Source of the DNA: Acidothermaceae bacterium
Lineage (GTDB): Bacteria > Actinomycetota > Actinomycetes > Acidothermales > Acidothermaceae
DNA length: 64,000 nucleotides
Direction of reading: 5' to 3'
Assembly (NCBI GenBank): GCA_036380925.1
Contig: DASVDW010000175.1
Location: 55 to 64,054 of the forward strand
A program made the translations under genes and the position numbers. The notes beneath the pieces were generated by a model. That model was not told the origin of the DNA. It made no database searches and saw only the letters and a list, made by a program, of their open reading frames with translations. Shown one piece after another: positions 23,649 to 56,443 of this stretch (positions within the stretch are counted from its first letter, which is position 1; each line of letters starts with the position of its first letter).

Positions 23649-25688
23649 TCAGCCGGTCCAGGGATGAGTTGGGGTTGATCCGTCGGGCGCCAACAGGTCG
23701 AAGCCGTCAGGGGTGTTGAGCAGTCCTGGCGCGGTGCCGGCCACGTCGTCCACACCGTATTGCCAGACGATTGACTTACTAGCTGGGTCGATCATCACAA
23801 CGCGGTGCCGGTAGTCGTCGTTCACGCAGATGACGCCGCTCGGCAGCACTTCTGCGAGGCTCGGGTGGTCGAGCATGCCGTGGCCGCTCGGCACGTGGTA
23901 ATCCCACAGCACGTGACCCTCGCGGTCGAACTCCACGATGCCGCCTGGGCGCGCGTAGTCGGCGACGATGTACTTGTCAGGGCCGATCTGCTGCGGGTCG
24001 GACGGATAGGTGATCGGCAGGTGCACTGTCCACACCAGCGAACCGGTCAACGTGTACTCGCTGATCCACGACCCGTCGACCTCTGATATCAGCACGTCGC
24101 CGTTCTGCAGCGGCGTGTCGCCGTTCGGGTAGCCAAGCGACTTCGGCGGCCGGTGCACGCAACTGCCGGTGGTGCCGATCTGGCCGACCTGTCGCGCCTG
24201 CGGGCTGATGATGACGACCCGGCAGTTGTTCGCGTCGGCGACGATGACCCTGCCGTCCTTGAGCAGGTAGGCGTCGTCGGGCTCGTGAAGATATCCAGAG
24301 CCTGGCCCGGCTTGGCCGGGGTGTCCGTACGACCACAGCGAATTGCCTGCAGGGTAGGCAATCTTTACGATCGTGTGATTACCCTCCTGGTTCGAGATGA
24401 TCGCCTTTCCGCCGTCGGTGAAGAACGCGTCGTCCGGAAAATAGAAGCCGGACGGCGGCGCTGCCGCGCGCGCGTTCGGGAACGTCCAGTGGATGGCGCC
24501 CCTCGGATCGACCAGGAGCAGCCGATTGTTGCCGCGATCGGCGATGAGCAGTTGGCCGCTGAAGGCGGTCTCACCGAGCCCTTCCGCGCTTGCGCGCGGC
24601 GAGACGGTCCGCGTCTTCAGCGCGACGATCGCCGTCGTCGCGGCGACCGTCTGCTCGGCGGTGAGCGCGTTTCCGCCGATCACGTAAGCGGTGTCACCGA
24701 CGACGACGGTCGCCATGTCGGAGACCGACTCGGGCAACGAGCCGACGACGGTCACGGCGTTGGTCGACGGATTGAACGCGTAGACGGTGTTTTGCAAGGT
24801 GTGGCCGTCGGTGCCGCCGATCACCAGCACTTCATCTCCAAGCGCGGCGACGGTTTCATGCGCTAGCGGGTGAGGAAACTTGGCCACCACGCTGCTGTGG
24901 CCGGTGCCGGTGTCGACGCGTTGGATGTCGGCGGTGGCGACGCCACGATGCTCGCCACCGAACATCCAAACCGAACCCTTCGCGGCGTAGGCCGCGCCGT
25001 ACCGGATCGTCTCGCCGAGTTGCCCTGCCTGGGTGAAGGTCTTGCCGTCGGTGGTGACCAGCACACCGGGGACTTCGTGAGCCCCGTCGTACCCGCCGAC
25101 GACGTAAAGGGAGTTGCCGCTGACCGCGACGGAGTCGTCTGATCGTGGTTGCGGGAGCTGCCCGACCCGAGCGGCCGCGCCGTTCGATCGAACCTCCTGG
25201 ACGGCGTTCGTGGTCGACGCCGCGCCGCCGCCCACGACGAACGCATGGCCGTCGATCACCGCCGCCGCCGCATCGTGCACGGGCGCCGCGAGCTTCCCTG
25301 CCTCCGTCACGCCGCCGGTTGACGGGTCGAATGCCTCAATGCTCGCCGTGGTTTGCTGCCTCGCGGTGAGGCCGCCGACGACGAGCACTTTTCCGCCGAC
25401 GTTGACTGCCACCACGCGTGACAACGCTTGGGGCAACCGCGCGCCGATCGTCGTCGCGGTGAGCGCAGCCGTCGGAACGGATGGCGACGCAGGGGTGGAG
25501 CTATCCGGCGACGCCGCGGTGGAGCTTGCCGCGTTATTCAACGTTGCTGGTGAGCCGGCTGCGGAGGGCGTCGCCGGGTGGTGCTTGCTCGAGGTGCAAC
25601 CGCTCACAGCAAGCGCCGCGGTGATAGCGAGCGCGGTCGCCGGGAGCACCCGCCGGGGCGCACGTGCAAGGAAGATCTCGAGCCGCAT
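23649..25688 (-). CDS. lipoprotein with N-terminal Kelch-type and C-terminal NHL-like beta-propeller halves
   Basis: Start chosen at MRLEIFLARAP..., with lipobox LAVSGC at about residue 30. Repeated GG-hydrophobic blades (VVGG, VIGG, MFGG) appear in the first half. ADRGNNRLLLVD, ADANNCRVVIIS and NDDYRHRVVMID NHL-like repeats appear in the second half. The 796-aa ORF-track version overlaps the divergent gene at 25920. Confidence 0.7.
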   Translation of the reverse strand: MRLEIFLARAPRRVLPATALAITAALAVSGCTSSKHHPATPSAAGSPATLNNAASSTAASPDSSTPASPSVPTAALTATTIGARLPQALSRVVAVNVGGKVLVVGGLTARQQTTASIEAFDPSTGGVTEAGKLAAPVHDAAAAVIDGHAFVVGGGAASTTNAVQEVRSNGAAARVGQLPQPRSDDSVAVSGNSLYVVGGYDGAHEVPGVLVTTDGKTFTQAGQLGETIRYGAAYAAKGSVWMFGGEHRGVATADIQRVDTGTGHSSVVAKFPHPLAHETVAALGDEVLVIGGTDGHTLQNTVYAFNPSTNAVTVVGSLPESVSDMATVVVGDTAYVIGGNALTAEQTVAATTAIVALKTRTVSPRASAEGLGETAFSGQLLIADRGNNRLLLVDPRGAIHWTFPNARAAAPPSGFYFPDDAFFTDGGKAIISNQEGNHTIVKIAYPAGNSLWSYGHPGQAGPGSGYLHEPDDAYLLKDGRVIVADANNCRVVIISPQARQVGQIGTTGSCVHRPPKSLGYPNGDTPLQNGDVLISEVDGSWISEYTLTGSLVWTVHLPITYPSDPQQIGPDKYIVADYARPGGIVEFDREGHVLWDYHVPSGHGMLDHPSLAEVLPSGVICVNDDYRHRVVMIDPASKSIVWQYGVDDVAGTAPGLLNTPDGFDLLAPDGSTPTHPWTG

Positions 25689-25919
25689 GCCGCCACCCTG
25701 GAGAGCCGACCTGAAAGTTCTCTGAAGATTCTCCAGTTTCACGTGCTCGTAAGGTCCGGCGGGGATCGTCGAACCGGAGAGGCGCCCAGCCGCGATGTGA
25801 CTGGGTGAATGTCTTAAGGCTCGTTCAGCTGGTTCCAAGGCGGCCGCCAGAGTCGCCGCGGACATTCGAAAGGGCGGGGCGGACACCGGCGAACAGGCTG
25901 AGCTCGAGGAGGAACGCTC

Positions 25920-26225
25920 ATGGCATCCCGAAGCGATGGGCTGCGGCGGGCGACCGCCGCCACGACCTTGCTGGCCGCCGCGAGTGTGACCGGCGTGGTC
26001 GTTGTCGGCGCGGTCGTGTCGCATCACCCAGCGACGCATGCGACAACGGGAACCACGGGCACGTCGTCCGTCTCGTCGGGCGGCTCAGATGACTCGTCGG
26101 GCAACTCGTCCGACAACCGTTCCGGTGACGACTCCAACGGCGGCGCCGTTCAACAACCGACACAGCAACCCGTGCAGCAGGCCCCGCAGCTGTCCAACAG
26201 CCACGCGGTGACGAGCGGCTCATGA
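25920..26225 (+). CDS. small twin-arginine / membrane-anchored Ser-Gly-Asp-rich protein (hypothetical; candidate ApbE client)
   Basis: 101 aa. GLRRATAATTLLAAASVTGVVVVGAVV is a Tat-like RR motif plus hydrophobic helix, followed by a low-complexity S/G/D/T/Q tail ending HAVTSGS. Its stop overlaps the apbE ATG (ATGA at 26222-26225). Confidence 0.5.
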   Translation: MASRSDGLRRATAATTLLAAASVTGVVVVGAVVSHHPATHATTGTTGTSSVSSGGSDDSSGNSSDNRSGDDSNGGAVQQPTQQPVQQAPQLSNSHAVTSGS

Positions 26226-27181
26226 ACACGGGGAAACCGAGCGCCTGCGAGTGGTCGGCGATCGGGACCACGGTCCGCGTTGTCGTGTCCTCACCCGACC
26301 GCTTGTTTTCGGCAAGGCGAATCGTGGTCGAGGAGGTGCAGGCCTTGGACCTGGCGTGCAGCCGCTTCAGGCCTGACTCCGAGGTCGCCCGGTTGGCGGT
26401 GAACGCCGGTCGTTGGACGCCGATCAGCGGCCTGCTCGCCGACGTGCTCGAATGCGCGTTGGCGGTTGCCCGTGACACCGATGGCGACGTCGACCCGACG
26501 ATGGGCGCCGACTTGGGCCGGCTGGGTTACGACCGCGACTTCGGGCAGATCGTTCATCTTCCGGCCGGATCCACGTCGTCCGCCGCGGTTCCGCTCAGCT
26601 ATCGGCTGGTGCGCCGGCCGACGTGGCGCGACGTCGAACTCGACCGCGCCGGACGGCGCGTGCGGGCGCCCGCCGGCGTCGTGATCGACCTGGGCGCGAT
26701 CGCCAAGGCGTCGTGCGCCGACCGGTGCGCCAGCCGGATTCACCACGAGCTTTCGACCGGTGTCCTGGTGAGTCTTGGTGGTGACATCGCGACGGCGGGC
26801 GCGGGACCGGACGGCGGTTGGCTGGTTCGGGTGCAAGAGCGGCCAGGCGTCGACGCCGGCCCGGCCAACACCGTCGTGCTGGCCGACGGCTTCGCGGTCG
26901 CGACGTCGAGCACGGTGAGCAGGGCATGGCAGCGTGGCGGCTCGCGGTTGCATCACATCCTCGATCCCGCCACGCGGCGTCCGGCAGACCCGGTTTGGCG
27001 GACGGTCACCGTCGCGGCGCCGACGTGCGTCGCCGCGAACGCCGCGAGCACCGCGTCGATTGTGCGCGGTCATGCGGCGCCCGGCTGGCTGGCGAGCCGC
27101 AACGTGGCGGCGCGCTTGGTCGACGAGCGTGGCGTCGTCCGCACCATTGGCAGTTGGCCAAGTGAAAGAGCAGCGTCATGA
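26222..27181 (+). CDS. apbE: FAD:protein FMN transferase (ApbE family), no recognisable signal peptide
   Basis: 319 aa with SRFRPDSEV, DPTMG, DLGAIAKA, VSLGGDI and HHILDPATRRP motifs of the ApbE family. The N-terminus MNTGKPSACEWSAIGT is not signal-like. Confidence 0.88.
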   Translation: MNTGKPSACEWSAIGTTVRVVVSSPDRLFSARRIVVEEVQALDLACSRFRPDSEVARLAVNAGRWTPISGLLADVLECALAVARDTDGDVDPTMGADLGRLGYDRDFGQIVHLPAGSTSSAAVPLSYRLVRRPTWRDVELDRAGRRVRAPAGVVIDLGAIAKASCADRCASRIHHELSTGVLVSLGGDIATAGAGPDGGWLVRVQERPGVDAGPANTVVLADGFAVATSSTVSRAWQRGGSRLHHILDPATRRPADPVWRTVTVAAPTCVAANAASTASIVRGHAAPGWLASRNVAARLVDERGVVRTIGSWPSERAAS

Positions 27182-27819
27182 CTCCCGCGCAAATCGACAC
27201 CGCGTTGTGGGACCTGGGCCGGGCAACCGGGGTGATCAGCCTGGCGTTGCTCACCGCCGTCGTCGCTCTCGGCATCGTCACCCGCTCAGGCCGGCCGCTG
27301 CCGGGGTTGCCGCGGTTTGCCGTGAGCGTGGTGCACCGAGCGGCAAGTTTGCTGGCGGTGACCTTTCTCGGCGTGCACATCATCACGCTGACGCTCGACC
27401 CGCAGTCGCAACTTCGCTGGATCGACTCGATTATCCCGTTCGGCAGCCGGTTCCGGCCGCTGTGGGTCGGGTTAGGCGCTGCCGCGTTCGACCTGATCGT
27501 CGCGCTGATTGTCACCAGCCTGTTGCGCCACCGCGTCGGGCGACGGATCTGGCGCGCAATTCACTGGACCGCCTATGCGATGTGGCCGTTCGCGATGCTG
27601 CACACCGTTGGCTCAGGCACCGACGCCCGAGCGCCGTGGATGGTGTGGTTCCTCATCGGATGCGGCGTCACCGCGTTCGTCGCTTTCGGTTGGCGAATTT
27701 CGGACCGTTTCATCGATTACGCGGAGCGGGTGGCGGGAACGCGAATTCCATCGGCGTTCACCCGCGCTGACCGCACCGTGACGGTGGGCCAGTTGACCGG
27801 AATGAGAGGGCAGCGATGA
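27178..27819 (+). CDS. ferric reductase-like (MsrQ/YedZ-type) transmembrane di-heme protein
   Basis: 213 aa with about six TM helices. Four membrane-embedded His (VVHRAAS, GVHIITL, AIHWTAY, AMLHTVG) are arranged as in the ferric-reductase transmembrane domain. ATGA overlaps at both ends. Confidence 0.78.
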   Translation: MTPAQIDTALWDLGRATGVISLALLTAVVALGIVTRSGRPLPGLPRFAVSVVHRAASLLAVTFLGVHIITLTLDPQSQLRWIDSIIPFGSRFRPLWVGLGAAAFDLIVALIVTSLLRHRVGRRIWRAIHWTAYAMWPFAMLHTVGSGTDARAPWMVWFLIGCGVTAFVAFGWRISDRFIDYAERVAGTRIPSAFTRADRTVTVGQLTGMRGQR

Positions 27820-29111
27820 TCGCCGCTGAAGACCGGTTCAAGACCGCTGCCGCGGCGACCCCGCTGATCGGCGGCTCGACCGCGGCCCAACTGTCCTTGG
27901 ACGCGCACCTGGCCGAGCACGGTTCGCTACCGACGTTGTCGGCTCGCGACGTCGTCCAGTTCGCCAAATGGGCCGGGCTCACCGGTCATGGTGGCGCCGG
28001 GTTTCCGTTGTGGCGCAAGCTCGATGCGGTCGCTCGCTCGCGCGGCCGAGCCGTTGTCGTCGGCAACGGCGCCGAAGGCGAACCGGCGAGCGGCAAGGAC
28101 CAATGGCTGCTCACCCATCGTCCGCACTTGGTGCTCGACGGCTTGCAGCTCGCCGCCCAAGCCGTCGGTGGAAGCGACGTTTTCCTTTACGCGAACGAAC
28201 TCCTTCCGCTCCGGCAGTTGAGCCGAGTGATCGCCGAACGTGACAGGGCGCAGATGGATTCCCGCTCGGTCGAGGTCGTCGCGGCGCCTGACGCTTTCAT
28301 CTCCGGCGAGGAGTCGTCGGTGGTCAGCCACCTGTCCGGCGCCGTCGCCTTGCCGCGGTTCAAGCAACCACCTGTGTTCGAGCGAGGAGTGCGCGGCCGT
28401 CCGACGCTGGTCAGCAATGTCGAGACACTGGCGCACCTGGCGTTGATCGCGCGGCACGGTCCGGATTGGTTTCGCCGTCGCGGCACTTCCGAGCAGCCGG
28501 GCACCATGCTGTTCACCGTCACTGGCGCCGTGGCAAACCCAGGCGTCGTCGAGGCGCCGCACGGCGCCCGACTCGCCGACGTCATCGACCTCGCCGGTGG
28601 CGCCACGAGTCGGCTGCAAGCGGTTCTGATCGGCGGCTATCACGGGGCCTGGCTGTCGCCCGACGTGGCGGCGCGGGCGCGTGTGTCGGCCGCCGACCTG
28701 GCGCCGGTTGGGGCGTCGCCCGGCGCCGGCGTCGTGGTCGCGTTGGGCGAACACGCCTGCGGCCTCATGGAATCCAGCCGAGTGCTTGGCTATCTCGCCC
28801 GCGAAGCGGCTGGCCAATGCGGGCCATGCCTGAACGGATTGCCACGAATCGCTGAGCTTTCTCACGCGTTGGTGACCCGGGCGGCCAACCCGGCGGCGGT
28901 CGCCGAGTTGCATCGGGTGGCCGGCCTGATCGAGCGTCGCGGCGCTTGCCACCATCCCGACGGGAGCGTGCGCTTCTTGCGCAGCGCGTTGCGCGTCTTC
29001 TGCGCGGAGCTGGAGCTGCACCATCGCGGCCGCTGCTCCCGAACCACGGACGACGCTGTGCTTCCGACGCCCCGCCGTAGCGTCCGTGACCTGCCGCGCA
29101 CGGGCAGTTGA
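27816..29111 (+). CDS. NuoF-like NAD(P)H/FMN/Fe-S protein (complex I 51-kDa subunit homologue, stand-alone)
   Basis: 431 aa. GHGGAGFPLWRKL and VVGNGAEGEPASGKD parallel NuoF GRGGAGFPTGMKW and VVNADESEPGTCKD. C-terminal GQCGPCLNG...RGACHHPDG parallels the N3 cluster region (ESCGKCTPCREG...FCALGDGA) but lacks the first Cys. Confidence 0.85.
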   Translation: MIAAEDRFKTAAAATPLIGGSTAAQLSLDAHLAEHGSLPTLSARDVVQFAKWAGLTGHGGAGFPLWRKLDAVARSRGRAVVVGNGAEGEPASGKDQWLLTHRPHLVLDGLQLAAQAVGGSDVFLYANELLPLRQLSRVIAERDRAQMDSRSVEVVAAPDAFISGEESSVVSHLSGAVALPRFKQPPVFERGVRGRPTLVSNVETLAHLALIARHGPDWFRRRGTSEQPGTMLFTVTGAVANPGVVEAPHGARLADVIDLAGGATSRLQAVLIGGYHGAWLSPDVAARARVSAADLAPVGASPGAGVVVALGEHACGLMESSRVLGYLAREAAGQCGPCLNGLPRIAELSHALVTRAANPAAVAELHRVAGLIERRGACHHPDGSVRFLRSALRVFCAELELHHRGRCSRTTDDAVLPTPRRSVRDLPRTGS

Positions 29112-29122
29112 GGAGATCCACC

Positions 29123-29362
29123 GTGAGCCCGAAATCAACAAAGACCGGGCCCTCCGCACGGCGAACCGGGCCCACGCTCGCGATCGACTGGACGGCGTGC
29201 GATGGTCGGGGTTTGTGCGCCGAACTCCTGCCGGAGCTGATCAAGCGCGATGACTGGGGTTTTCCGTTGATAGCGGACGACGCGGTGCCCGCGCACCTCC
29301 TGGCGTTCGCCGAACGAGCCGTCGACGTCTGTCCCACACTCGCGCTCAGGCTGGGTCGGTAA
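29123..29362 (+). CDS. small ferredoxin
   Basis: GTG 29123 lies 7 nt after GAGGAG (alternative TTG 29108 overlaps the upstream stop). IDWTACDGRGLCAELLPE...VDVCPTLAL is a CxxxGxC...CP single-cluster ferredoxin pattern. Confidence 0.75.
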   Translation: MSPKSTKTGPSARRTGPTLAIDWTACDGRGLCAELLPELIKRDDWGFPLIADDAVPAHLLAFAERAVDVCPTLALRLGR

Positions 29363-30417
29363 TGCGGAGGATGCGCCTCTTCGCACACCCGGTCTTCGCG
29401 GTCGCGATCCTCAGCGCCGTGGGGTTGTTGTCGGCCGCTTGTTCGTCGCACCCGGCCAAGCGCACAACCACGCCGTCGGCTGGCTCCTCGGGCGTCTCAA
29501 CGGCGGTCCCGTCGGCGCCTCCGCCGGCCGACGCGTCGTCATCAGCGCCGCCGGTCGCCTCCTCCGGCGGCACAACCGCCTCGACACCGACGCCGGGCCG
29601 ACCCGACGCCGCACGGCCGTGCGGCGTCGCGTCGTCCGGGGTGAAGGTCGAGCACGTCATCTGGATCTGGATGGAGAACAAGCCGCTGTCGGCGGTGGTG
29701 GGGAGTTCGAGCGCGCCGTACGAAAACGCCCTGGCACGGCGATGCGGATCGGCGGCCGACTACCACGGGATCACGCATCCGTCATTGCCGAATTACCTGG
29801 CGGCGACCGGCGGGTCGACGTTCGGAGTCTCTGACGACAAGAGCCCGTCGGCGCACCGCATCGGCGGCGCCTCGATCTTCAGCCAGCTCGACAGCGCGGG
29901 CAAGTCGTGGCGCGCGTACGTGGAGTCAATGCCGCAAAACTGCGCGACTTCGGCCAGCAGCCCGTACGCGGTGAAGCACAATCCTGCGGCGTACTACACC
30001 GCGCTGCGGCCGTCGTGCGAGCGCAACGACGTGCCGTTGGAGAACAACCTGCAGCGCGACATCGGCGCGGGCACGCTGCCGTCGTTCGCTTTCATCACGC
30101 CGAACCTGTGCAATGACACCCATGACTGCCCGGTGAGCACCGGCGACCGTTGGCTGGCGGGCTGGATACCGAAGATCCTCGACGGCGCCAACTACCGGGC
30201 GGGCGACACCGTGGTGGTGCTCACCTGGGACGAAGGCAAAGGGTCGAGTAATCAGATCCCCACCGTGGTGATCGCCCCCAAGGTGAAGCCGGGTGCACGG
30301 GTGTCGGAGCGGCTCGACCACTACGGGCTGCTGCGGGGCACCGAGGATTTGCTCGGCCTCCCGCCGCTCGGCAAAGCAGCCACCGCGCCGTCGTTCGCCA
30401 CTGCCTTCGGCCTCTGA
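29362..30417 (+). CDS. phosphoesterase-family (AcpA/PLC-like) lipoprotein
   Basis: 351 aa. Lipobox LLSAACSS, Pro/Ser/Ala linker, then [29 protein letters not shown] and VVLTWDEG motifs of the phosphoesterase family. The ATG overlaps the ferredoxin TAA by 1 nt. Confidence 0.8.
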
Positions 30418-54372: not shown

Positions 54373-55142
54373 GCGGCGAAGGAACCCAGGTGCCTATGCA
54401 ATCCGCGTCGTCCGACGAACTGCCGATGGTCACGCTCGACCCGCGGCTGGGTCCAGCCGCGGTGGCGAGCGATCCGTTGTCGGACGACGCGAAGCAGCGG
54501 ATCCGCGAGCTTGGCGCGCAAGTGATCGCCCGTTACCCGCGGCCGCGCTCCGCGTTGATGCCGCTGCTGTATCTCGCGCAGGCCGAGCAGGGTTACGTCT
54601 CGCCCGACGGCATCAAACTGGTCGCCGAGATGCTGGAGCTCACCACCGCCGAGGTCTCCGCGGTCAGCACCTTCTACACGATGTACAAGCGGCGGCCTTG
54701 CGGTGATTATGCGGTCGGCGTGTGCACCAACACGCTTTGCGCGGTGATGGGTGGCGACGCGATTTTCGACGCGTTGAAAGAACATCTCGGCGTCGGCAAC
54801 AACGGCACCACGCCCGACGGCAAGGTGACCCTCGAGCACATCGAGTGCAACGCGGCTTGCGACTACGCGCCGGTGATGATGGTCAACTGGGAGTTCTTCG
54901 ACAACCAGACCGTGGAGTCGGCCAAAGAACTCGTCGACCGGTTGCGCGCCGGTGACCCGCCGACGCCCACGCGGGGTGCGCCGTTGCGCACCCACACCGA
55001 GACATCCCGGGTGCTCGCTGGTTTTGCCGATGGCGCGGCGAACTCCGGCCCGTCGGCAGGTCCCGCGTCGCTCGCCGGCCTGCGACTCGCCCGCGAACGC
55101 AACGAGACCGCGCCGGCGATGAACCAGGAGGGCAACCAGTGA
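54369..55142 (+). CDS. nuoE: NADH-quinone oxidoreductase subunit E
   Basis: ATG 54369 overlaps the nuoD stop. The 2Fe-2S Cys pattern is VCTNTLCAV...[11 protein letters not shown]. Confidence 0.93.
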
Positions 55143-56443
55143 GCTTTAATCTCACGCCGGTGCTCACCGCGCAATGGGGCGCCGATCAGTCGTGGACGCT
55201 CGCGGCCTATGAGCGCACCGGCGGCTACCAGGCGCTGCGCCAAGCGCTGGAAATGGAGCCGGACGCGCTGATCCAGCTGGTGAAGGACTCCGGGTTGCGC
55301 GGTCGCGGCGGCGCGGGATTCCCCACCGGCATGAAATGGGGCTTCATCCCGCAAGGTGACGGCAAGCCGCACTACCTGGTCGTCAACGCGGACGAGAGCG
55401 AACCGGGCACCTGCAAAGACATCCCGATGCTGATGGCGACGCCGCACACGCTGGTCGAGGGCGTCATCATCTCCGCCTACGCGATTCGGGCCAACCACGC
55501 GTTCATCTACGTGCGTGGCGAGGTGCTGCACGTCGTCCGCCGGCTGCTCAACGCGGTCGAAGAGGCGCGCGCCGCCGGCTACATCGGAGGCAACGTCCTC
55601 GGCAAGGGCTTCGACATCGAGGTCACGGTGCACATCGGCGCGGGCGCCTACATCTGAGGTGAGGAGACCGCGCTGCTGGAGTCGCTGGAGGGCTTCCGCG
55701 GCCAGCCGCGATTGCGGCCGCCGTTCCCCGCTGTCGAGGGTCTTTACGCGTGCCCGACCGTCATCAACAACGTCGAGACGATCTCGTCGGTGCCGGCGAT
55801 CGTTCGCGGCGGCGCGCAGTGGTTCCGCTCAATGGGCACCGAGAAATCCCCTGGATTCAAAATTTTCTCGCTGTCCGGCCACGTCGCTCGGCCCGGCCAG
55901 TACGAGGCGCCGCTCGGCATCACGTTGCGGGAGTTGCTCGACGCGACCGGCGGGATTCGCGAAGGCCACGAACTGAAGTTCTGGACACCTGGCGGTTCGT
56001 CGACCCCGCTGTTCACCGCCGCGCACCTCGACGTCCCGCTCGACTTCGAGGGGCCGCCACAGCACGGCTCGATGCTGGGCACCACGGCCCTCCAGATCTT
56101 CGACGAGACCACCTGCGTGGTGCGCGCCGTCAAGCGGTGGAGCGAGTTCTACGCGCACGAGTCGTGCGGCAAGTGCACCCCCTGCCGCGAAGGCACCTTC
56201 TGGTACGTGCAGATTTACGAGCGGCTTGAGAACGGCACGGCGACGGAGGAGGACATCGAGACATTGCTCGACCTGTCCGACAACATCTTGGGCCGCGCCT
56301 TCTGCGCCCTCGGTGACGGCGCCACCAGCCCGGTCACGTCGTCCATCCAGCACTTCCGCGACGAGTACGTCGCGCACTTCGAGCAAGGCGGCTGCCCGTT
56401 CGACCCGGTCGCCTCTACCGTTTTCGCTGGAGCGAGCGCCTAA
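55139..56443 (+). pseudogene. nuoF: NADH-quinone oxidoreductase subunit F, interrupted by a single in-frame TGA (55655-55657) at the invariant Cys codon; nonsense mutation, base-call error or recoding event
   Basis: ORFs 55139..55657 and 55712..56443 are in the same frame, with no other stop between them. The translation reads GAGAYI-[TGA]-GEETALLESLEGFRGQPR, where NuoF proteins have GAGxYICGEETAL. All other NuoF motifs are intact. Confidence 0.85.

Follow-up and report, generated by a model that had tools for sequence, protein, structure and literature searches.

In a 64,000-nucleotide stretch of an Acidothermaceae genome (GenBank assembly GCA_036380925.1, contig DASVDW010000175.1, positions 55 to 64,054 of the forward strand), hereafter the window, we identified a tightly coupled block of genes encoding a small tail protein of 101 amino acids (aa), an ApbE-family flavin adenine dinucleotide (FAD):protein flavin mononucleotide (FMN) transferase, an MsrQ-like membrane protein with a ferric-reductase domain, a stand-alone NuoF-like flavoprotein and a single-cluster ferredoxin (Table 1). 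These genes recur together across Actinomycetota, and the small protein ends in a conserved heptapeptide that can be aligned with the motif at which ApbE enzymes attach FMN. We favor the reading that this coupled five-gene module would act as an electron conduit from NAD(P)H to the outside of the cell, with FMN carried on the last serine of the 101-aa protein. Judging from sequence and gene order, we hold this to be somewhat likelier right than wrong.

A conserved five-gene module in Actinomycetota

An alignment of NuoF-like homologues was used to scan a single genome from each species, and the best 80 of at least 574 candidate relatives (46-65% identity) were taken as relatives of the locus. 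Gene presence was scored by BLAST of the window's proteins against all open reading frames (ORFs) of the relative loci, and neighboring genes were grouped by clustering. The module is present in at least 80 actinobacterial species, with hosts that include Actinoplanes, Amycolatopsis, Mycolicibacterium/Mycobacterium, Streptomyces, a Frankia symbiont, Dermatophilaceae, Nocardioidaceae, Solirubrobacterales and many uncultured lineages. The MsrQ-like, NuoF-like and ferredoxin genes stand together in nearly all loci, and an ApbE gene is directly upstream in about 65 of them. A preliminary description of the window had proposed a coupled unit of six genes, the sixth encoding a phosphoesterase. Across Actinomycetota the NuoF-like, ferredoxin, Ferric_reduct and ApbE genes proved to be a strongly co-conserved set, and the conserved unit consists of five genes, not six: those for the small protein, ApbE, the MsrQ-like protein, the NuoF-like protein and the ferredoxin.

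The small protein and its C-terminal heptapeptide

The window's small protein comprises a basic N-terminal flank (GLRR), a hydrophobic segment at residues ~15-33 and a 68-aa hydrophilic, low-complexity tail, 85% of which is S/T/G/A/P/Q/N/D and which ends in HAVTSGS. It has no Pfam or NCBIfam match at E-values up to 0.01, hence no match to a folded FMN_bind domain, and a homology search with it returned one weak match (1.6e-5) among 5.8 billion clusters. The same architecture is nevertheless found at the same position in about 72 loci. At 56 non-redundant loci, where the stop codon of the small ORF abuts or overlaps the ApbE start, the ORF encodes a basic N-flank (median of four K/R), a hydrophobic segment and a tail of 46-139 aa, and the tails of the family are typically at least 85% S/T/G/A/P/Q/N/D. 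Further small genes were found directly upstream of the MsrQ-like gene in fifteen loci (of the ApbE gene in L015, L023 and L053), and frame scanning or inspection gave three more. One member, that of L006, has an aberrant end.

The family shares the terminal consensus [H/Q]-A-T-S-G-[G/A]-S-stop. Counting back from the last residue (position 0) in 73 sequences, position -6 is H in 21 and Q in 20, -5 is A in 48, -4 is T in 46, -3 is S in 59 or T in 12, -2 is G in 50, S in 11 or R in 8, and -1 is G in 63 or A in 9; the terminal residue is S in all 73. The motif takes lineage-specific forms, HAVTSGS in the window's clade and [IV]T[IV]SRGS in mycobacteria, and even a loose version of it ends just ~20 of ~12,500 unrelated ORFs from the same loci. 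The known ApbE motif is D-x-x-[S/T]-G-A-[S/T], with the last residue as acceptor; seven residues suffice for flavinylation, terminal tags work best and Ser is accepted, while an Asp-to-Ala change has a minor effect and Gly-to-Ala or Ala-to-Val changes halve flavinylation (PMC12052999). The family consensus lies in register with this motif: the [S/T], G and terminal [S/T] positions match, the A position is G in 63/73 and A in 9/73, and the D position is H or Q. The FMN_bind proteins encoded at related loci also do without the Asp, having Q or N in its place (QAVSGAT, NSVSGAT, NLISGAT).

Several observations show that selection acts on the peptide. Each of positions -5 to 0 uses three or four synonymous codons, and the His at -6 uses two. 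How the stop and the next start are arranged varies by locus (ATGA, TGATG, TGAnATG and gaps of up to 20 nt), and the motif is retained where the stop and the ApbE start lie 2-20 nt apart. Internal copies also occur, with HATSGGS twice inside the L072 tail and four SGAT repeats in L012. A ribosome-binding-site artefact as the sole cause of the conserved C-terminus is ruled out by the synonymous variation, the varied geometries and gaps, and the internal L072 copies. Fusion of the small protein to ApbE by frameshifting or readthrough was likewise rejected, as the frame of ApbE relative to the small ORF is -1 at some loci and +1 at others.

The small gene also follows ApbE when the module is rearranged. 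At four loci the ApbE gene is detached from the MsrQ-like gene (L015, L033, L059, L072), and there the small gene is still immediately upstream of ApbE; where no ApbE gene is nearby, it stands immediately upstream of the MsrQ-like gene. Because the tag is in register with the ApbE motif and the small gene stays by detached ApbE genes, we infer from sequence and synteny that the small protein is the module's flavin carrier, a domain-less ApbE client whose flexible tail would bear the FMN. There is experimental precedent in FMN_red proteins, which are flavinylated on an unstructured C-terminal extension (PMC11334425). The preliminary description had listed the 101-aa protein as a candidate client and missed the heptapeptide, from which that candidacy now gains strong new support.

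ApbE and the redox proteins

Hidden Markov model searches with Pfam agreed with the domains assigned in the preliminary description: ApbE, Ferric_reduct, Complex1_51K with SLBB and NADH_4Fe-4S, Fer4_15 and Phosphoesterase (E-values of 1e-28 for Complex1_51K, 1.1e-14 for NADH_4Fe-4S and 8.6e-13 for Fer4_15; Table 1 gives others). The ApbE match spans profile positions 2-263 of 266 and begins at residue 15. The protein aligns with the solved structures 1vrm and 3pnd, the best six PDB chains starting at query residues 9-14, and the active-site blocks GGD, ATS and HHILDP are conserved. With the domain beginning at residue 9-15 there is no room for a signal peptide, as had been noted at the outset, and no start codon lies between the beginning of the ORF and the in-frame stop ahead of it. 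Nowhere in the family does ApbE carry a signal peptide.

The MsrQ-like protein retains the four intramembrane His residues of the preliminary description, H53, H67, H129 and H142, with 78-80 of 80 sequences invariant at these positions; conservation does not extend to H118. The pairs H53/H67 and H129/H142 lie 13-14 residues apart on predicted helices 46-73 and 122-144 and are presumed to be the bis-His ligands of two b hemes. An AlphaFold model (predicted local distance difference test score, pLDDT, 76.6) has five long predicted transmembrane helices, and the structures that it resembles most are STEAP1, the NOX5 transmembrane domain, SpNOX and DUOX1, with template modeling (TM) scores of 0.40-0.50 and weak E-values. 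The basic C-terminal tail is presumed to be cytoplasmic. Apparent fusions of the MsrQ-like protein to a tail were examined and rejected, the longer homologues having miscalled N-termini or unrelated Pro-rich extensions.

The NuoF-like protein keeps the FMN/NAD(P)H motifs GxGGAGFP and NxxEGEP, with G57, G59, G60, F63, P64, N84 and E87-P90 invariant, and most of the N3 Fe-S site, where alignment with HydB identifies C335, C338 and C378 as three of the four canonical Cys. Both features had been read correctly before. Its model (pLDDT 86.4) matches NuoF, HydB and NfnB at TM scores of ~0.8, and the protein falls below all NuoF equivalog cut-offs (201.5 bits against 558.65 for TIGR01959). The ferredoxin has three invariant Cys, C31, C37 and C75-P76 in the 84-aa numbering. 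Of its two possible starts, the GTG at 29123 is more likely, because GAGGAG precedes it at good spacing and the L083 orthologue has 79 aa. An NAD(P)H/Fe-S donor on the cytoplasmic side feeding a di-heme membrane protein is the natural reading of this co-conserved set. The preliminary description had arrived at the same reading, and the strong co-conservation supports it.

A genuine nuo operon lies elsewhere in the window, at ~51.8-59 kb. Its canonical nuoF (55139-56443, plus strand) contains an in-frame TGA at 55655-55657, at the conserved Cys of GAGAYICGEETAL, so that it reads GAGAYI-stop-GEETALLESLEG. The TGA could reflect a TGY-to-TGA error or a pseudogene; a recoded codon is less likely. 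A selenocysteine reading was rejected, the downstream RNA being no more structured than shuffled sequences (z-score -0.27). No tRNA gene was found in the window.

Predicted topology and possible export of the small protein

By the positive-inside rule the tail is placed outside in 56/56 proteins, with N-flanks enriched in K/R and tails of net negative charge, and the small protein is accordingly predicted to be N-in, C-out. A twin-Arg pair occurs in 47 of 71 small proteins, and another 22 of the 71 have neither RR nor KR/RK. In the window, GLRRATAA precedes an Ala/Gly/Thr/Val-rich segment; after the RR, the family has A/T/A and not the x-F-L of the Tat-type context S/T-R-R-x-F-L-K. Flavinylation before export by the twin-arginine translocation (Tat) pathway had been raised in the preliminary description. 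It is conceivable for the window's protein, but cytoplasmic flavinylation followed by Tat export cannot be a general rule because so many members lack the twin-Arg pair.

Many members have signal-peptidase-like sites (AAHA/AD, AAYA/SD, LAYA/DT) or a recurrent LPG[S/A]T just past the hydrophobic segment, and because such peptidase-like sites follow the segment, the tail may be released instead of anchored. The longer form [A/T]LPG[S/A]T stands directly after the hydrophobic segment at about ten loci (L011, L012, L017, L025, L034, L050, L056, L065, L066, L070) and could be a processing or docking site. In nine loci, membrane glycosyltransferases of the PMT_2 family (protein O-mannosyltransferase-like) are encoded at most ~5 kb from the module, as at L078 (467-2317, minus strand). 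These enzymes could glycosylate the Ser/Thr-rich tail.

Proposed electron path and alternative readings

The path that we propose builds on the gene order and coupling, the domain identities, the conserved ligand residues, the conserved terminal tag and the predicted topology. The NuoF-like protein would oxidize NAD(P)H at its FMN and hand electrons via an Fe-S cluster to the three-Cys ferredoxin, which would reduce the cytoplasmic-side heme of the five-helix MsrQ-like cytochrome b. The two bis-His hemes would then take the electrons across the membrane to an outer acceptor, the FMN put by the co-encoded ApbE on the last serine of the 101-aa protein. This flavin, either tethered or, after cleavage of the N-terminal segment, released, would reduce an external acceptor. 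In the window's lineage, a Kelch/NHL lipoprotein and the secreted phosphoesterase would have been added beside the module. Every one of these transfers is a proposal, and so is the terminal acceptor; that the tag is flavinylated, and on which side of the membrane, is proposed as well.

A number of findings count against the proposed path. The window's HAVTSGS agrees with the ApbE motif only at the -3 [S/T] and the terminal Ser, and at the other three of the five specified positions it has His, Ser and Gly where the motif has Asp, Gly and Ala. TCN encodes the last Ser in every sequence and the stop is TGA in 72/73, so some nucleotide-level constraint from translational reinitiation is mixed into the conservation. 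ApbE is signal-less, while the tail is predicted to lie outside and a twin-Arg pair is present in only 47/71, a discrepancy as to where and how enzyme and substrate would meet. In the NuoF-like protein the first N3 Cys is replaced by an invariant Ala332, and a four-Cys N3 site is lacking; the family-invariant C315, C407, H380 and H402 could take the place of the lost Cys. No NuoE-like gene was found in the block or nearby. Neither a terminal reductase nor a transporter is a consistent neighbor of the module, and a census for terminal reductases and metal transporters gave no MsrP, VIT1 or similar among the listed neighbor families; an MsrP molybdoenzyme partner is absent from the 25 largest neighbor clusters and from the Pfam families listed for flanking genes. 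Nothing in the analysis points to a flavin docking site, and since the small protein has no folded domain, any such docking must be on another protein.

To a more specific form of the conduit reading we give tentative credence short of an even chance. The small protein would be a natural flavin tag, flavinylated in the cytoplasm by the signal-less ApbE straight after coupled translation and then exported, either to stay tethered or to be cleaved at the signal-peptidase-like site and released, as a flexible or diffusible peptide-bound flavin shuttle between the MsrQ-like cytochrome and external acceptors. It would be the first client made up of only a targeting segment, a disordered Ser/Thr-rich tail and a terminal acceptor heptapeptide. 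One may speculate that tight termination-reinitiation coupling would favor the enzyme meeting the tag right after its synthesis. If flavinylation does take place in the cytoplasm, export of FAD would be unnecessary.

Alternatively, the conduit may be real and the small protein not flavinylated, a reading that we find doubtful. Its C-terminus would then serve in docking to the MsrQ-like protein or the linked histidine kinase, in processing or sorting, or partly in reinitiation on ApbE, and ApbE would modify an unlinked protein, for example an FMN_bind protein, or a cytoplasmic target. An ApbE without a signal recalls the cytoplasmic Klebsiella ApbE, which serves a cytoplasmic fumarate reductase (PMC12052999), and the off-motif tag of the window counts in the same direction, as does the TCN-TGA ending, which suggests a degree of nucleotide-level constraint. 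FMN_bind proteins are encoded near the module at a few loci (L001/L004, L016, L048) and could be the real clients, and in about 15 loci the small gene is present although ApbE is not encoded nearby. Most loci, however, have no FMN_bind gene within 10 kb, and the window has none in the block or its flanks, in line with the preliminary description. The seven terminal positions are in register with the ApbE motif, and the local FMN_bind motifs likewise depart from it, to Q/N, at the first position. Selection on the peptide, as argued by the synonymous variation, stop/start geometry and internal repeats, and the small gene's company with ApbE genes detached from the module also speak for flavinylation of the small protein.

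Flavinylation might also occur with the tethered flavin on the cytoplasmic face, where the tail would swing like an arm between the inner heme and the pair of NuoF-like protein and ferredoxin. The topology paradox would then be gone, as ApbE, the NuoF-like protein and the ferredoxin are all cytoplasmic, but we regard this arrangement as improbable. The K/R-bearing N-flanks of 56/56 proteins and the net negative tails predict N-in, C-out, signal-peptidase-like sites follow the hydrophobic segment in many members, and the ferredoxin already serves as a cytoplasmic carrier. Ser/Thr/Pro/Gly-rich linkers are, moreover, typical of exported actinobacterial proteins.

Least probable is the six-gene unit first described, with the phosphoesterase lipoprotein integral to the conduit as flavinylated client or terminal enzyme. 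In its favor, the phosphoesterase gene is indeed coupled to the ferredoxin gene by TAATG and is conserved in L083, L084 and L003, and a different enzyme, an alkaline phosphatase, adjoins the module in about seven Actinoplanes loci. Against it, the phosphoesterase follows the ferredoxin only in the window and those three relatives and is missing from that position in 76/80 genome loci, the Actinoplanes genes are on the opposite strand, and we know of no redox cofactor in PF04185 enzymes, which are hydrolases. The phosphoesterase is thus a passenger gene of a few lineages, translationally coupled in the window yet outside the conserved module.

Gene block, flanks and neighboring genes

Table 1. 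Positions of the module genes and associated features in the window.
Feature	Position	Strand	Details
Small tail protein gene	25920-26225	+	101 aa
ApbE-family FAD:protein FMN transferase gene	26222-27181	+	319 aa; Pfam PF02424, 8.8e-49
MsrQ-like / ferric-reductase-domain membrane protein gene	27178-27819	+	213 aa; PF01794, 2.1e-9
Stand-alone NuoF-like flavoprotein gene	27816-29111	+	431 aa; Pfam and NCBIfam matches
Single-cluster ferredoxin gene (Fer4_15)	29123-29362	+	79 aa from GTG 29123; alternative TTG 29108 gives 84 aa
Phosphoesterase gene (PF04185), secreted, probably lipoprotein	29362-30417	+	351 aa; Pfam 7.4e-29
Kelch/NHL lipoprotein gene	23649-25688	-	679 aa; lipobox LAVSGC; Kelch beta-propeller and NHL/PQQ-like propeller; divergent from module
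Divergent intergenic region, Kelch/NHL lipoprotein gene to small ORF	25689-25919	.	Presumed promoter/operator; regulatory role inferred
Heptapeptide H-A-V-T-S-G-S codons, C-terminus of small protein	26202-26222	+	Proposed flavinylation tag; last Ser presumed acceptor

The six plus-strand ORFs and their coordinates agree between the preliminary description and the ORF list. Reading the sequence also bore out the junctions given there: ATGA at 26222, 27178 and 27816, TTGA at 29108 with GTG at 29123, and TAATG at 29360-29364. The stop codon of the small ORF (TGA, 26223-26225) overlaps the ApbE ATG at 26222, a GGAGGA ribosome-binding site lies 8 nt ahead of the small-ORF ATG at 25920, and third-position GC is 0.79 in the small ORF, in agreement with the 0.76-0.88 of its neighbors. 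A scan of the block found no promoter-like or terminator-like sites inside it above shuffle expectation, and an Rfam scan of the window gave no matches. Upstream lie hemD/cobA-like and hemB genes (ALAD, 2.6e-137) and a HAD hydrolase gene; downstream are hemL (Aminotran_3) and genes for a His_Phos_1 protein, a Redoxin protein and a DsbD_TM/CcdA-like protein, with cytochrome c maturation genes. The block is therefore inserted between hemB and hemL, as previously proposed, and exactly the same arrangement is found in the nearest relatives, L083 and L084, which are Acidothermaceae metagenome-assembled genomes.

The intergenic region upstream of the small ORF holds GTTCTCTGAAGATTCTCCAGTTTCAC, with TTCTC-like repeats 11 nt apart, in a region that shares conserved blocks with L083 and L084 and, in part, with L002. 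The repeats look like the direct-repeat sites of OmpR-family regulators, a type of regulator encoded beside the module at roughly half of the other loci. The commonest other neighbors are indeed an OmpR-type response regulator (46/81 loci) and a HAMP/HisKA histidine kinase (38/81 loci), both of which score below every NCBIfam equivalog cut-off. The parts list of the preliminary description was correct; these frequent partners of other loci could not be seen from the window. No two-component pair was found near the module in the window itself, and the window's clade has the Kelch/NHL lipoprotein instead.

The Kelch/NHL lipoprotein gene is present in seven loci of the clustered set, plus L083/L084, and like the phosphoesterase gene it is an add-on limited to a few lineages. 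A search of the PDB with it gave generic propeller matches only. It is a possible extracytoplasmic partner of the module. Close relatives carry extra extracytoplasmic propeller genes: L001 (4056-5512, minus strand) encodes a canonical FMN_bind protein (QAVSGAT) paired with a PQQ_2-like propeller beside the Kelch/NHL lipoprotein, and L083 (4276-5442, plus strand) has a PQQ_2/NHL protein in the same company. Because of these genes, beta-propeller proteins may be external partners in the window's clade.

Two unrelated types of secreted phosphatase adjoin the module, the alkaline phosphatase PhoA at about seven loci and the PF04185 enzyme in the window's clade and L003. The PhoA genes are found at Actinoplanes loci, including L010, L019, L026 and L039, just downstream of the ferredoxin gene and on the opposite strand. 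These neighbors hint at a link with phosphate acquisition, and could be a coincidence.

Relation to known systems and significance

The closest described systems are the MsrQ-like flavinylation-associated clusters of Méheust et al. (2021, eLife, PMC8238504), which are mostly actinobacterial and of which 31 contain a NuoF-like protein, with NAD(P)H inferred as the donor. Their operational definition asks for a PF01794 gene with an ApbE, FMN_bind, DUF2271 or DUF3570 gene no more than five genes away. The window's locus agrees with this part of the definition, its ApbE and Ferric_reduct genes overlapping by 4 nt, but not with the further, signal-based part, as ApbE, which has no signal, is the only target gene in the block. 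Like those clusters, the module has a PF01794 cytochrome by apbE and a PF10589 NuoF-like protein as presumed NAD(P)H-oxidizing donor, and is uncharacterized experimentally. Unlike them, as they "typically include" FMN_bind, it has no such gene and a signal-less ApbE; their description mentions neither the ferredoxin nor the small tail protein nor the linked two-component system. We infer that loci like the window's would fail the signal-based filter of that survey, and such failure may explain its small number of clusters. The earlier statement that no module of this kind had been characterized holds for experimental work, but clusters of NuoF-like, MsrQ-like and ApbE genes, the 31 above, had already been catalogued (PMC8238504). 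Our literature search found no description of the small protein and no experimental study of the module. The conduit idea itself is not new; what is new is the proposed tagged client that has no domain, along with the separate ferredoxin and the two-component system linked to the module.

The proposed tag has counterparts among known ApbE substrates. The engineered Flavin-tag (Tong, Fraaije; PMC9400968, PMC12052999) is likewise a short terminal peptide of at least seven residues ending in an acceptor Ser/Thr, but it is artificial and of the DGLSGAT type, taken from NqrC, whereas here a natural family is apparently built from a membrane segment, a linker and a tag with H/Q for Asp and G for Ala. 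The FMN_red proteins (Huang et al. 2024, mSystems, PMC11334425) also carry the motif on a disordered C-terminal extension, where modification has been confirmed experimentally. Their flavin folds back into the protein's own flavin-binding domain; the small protein, in contrast, has no folded domain. With NOX/FRE/STEAP proteins and the E. coli MsrQ, the module shares a four-His transmembrane core, presumed in the module to hold two hemes, that would connect a cytoplasmic nicotinamide-linked flavoprotein to the outside. It differs from them in having five helices rather than six and no fused FAD/NAD domain, with a separate NuoF-like donor and a ferredoxin instead.

The survey of flavinylation left several hundred genomes with orphan apbE genes and concluded that some substrates were still to be identified (PMC8238504). 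If the small protein is flavinylated as proposed, clients of its kind, with no domain and recognizable by their terminal heptapeptide, would explain part of these orphan genes in Actinomycetota. A folded FMN_bind domain would then be dispensable in nature, not just in engineered tags, and the small protein, as a flexible or released peptide, would represent a new means of positioning a redox cofactor extracellularly. It would also mean that a family widespread in Actinomycetota has been hidden from homology searches and from flavinylation surveys based on signal peptides. The module is present in cultivable genera (Actinoplanes, Amycolatopsis, Mycolicibacterium and Streptomyces), and the dedicated two-component system that often accompanies it could lead to its physiological signal and acceptor.

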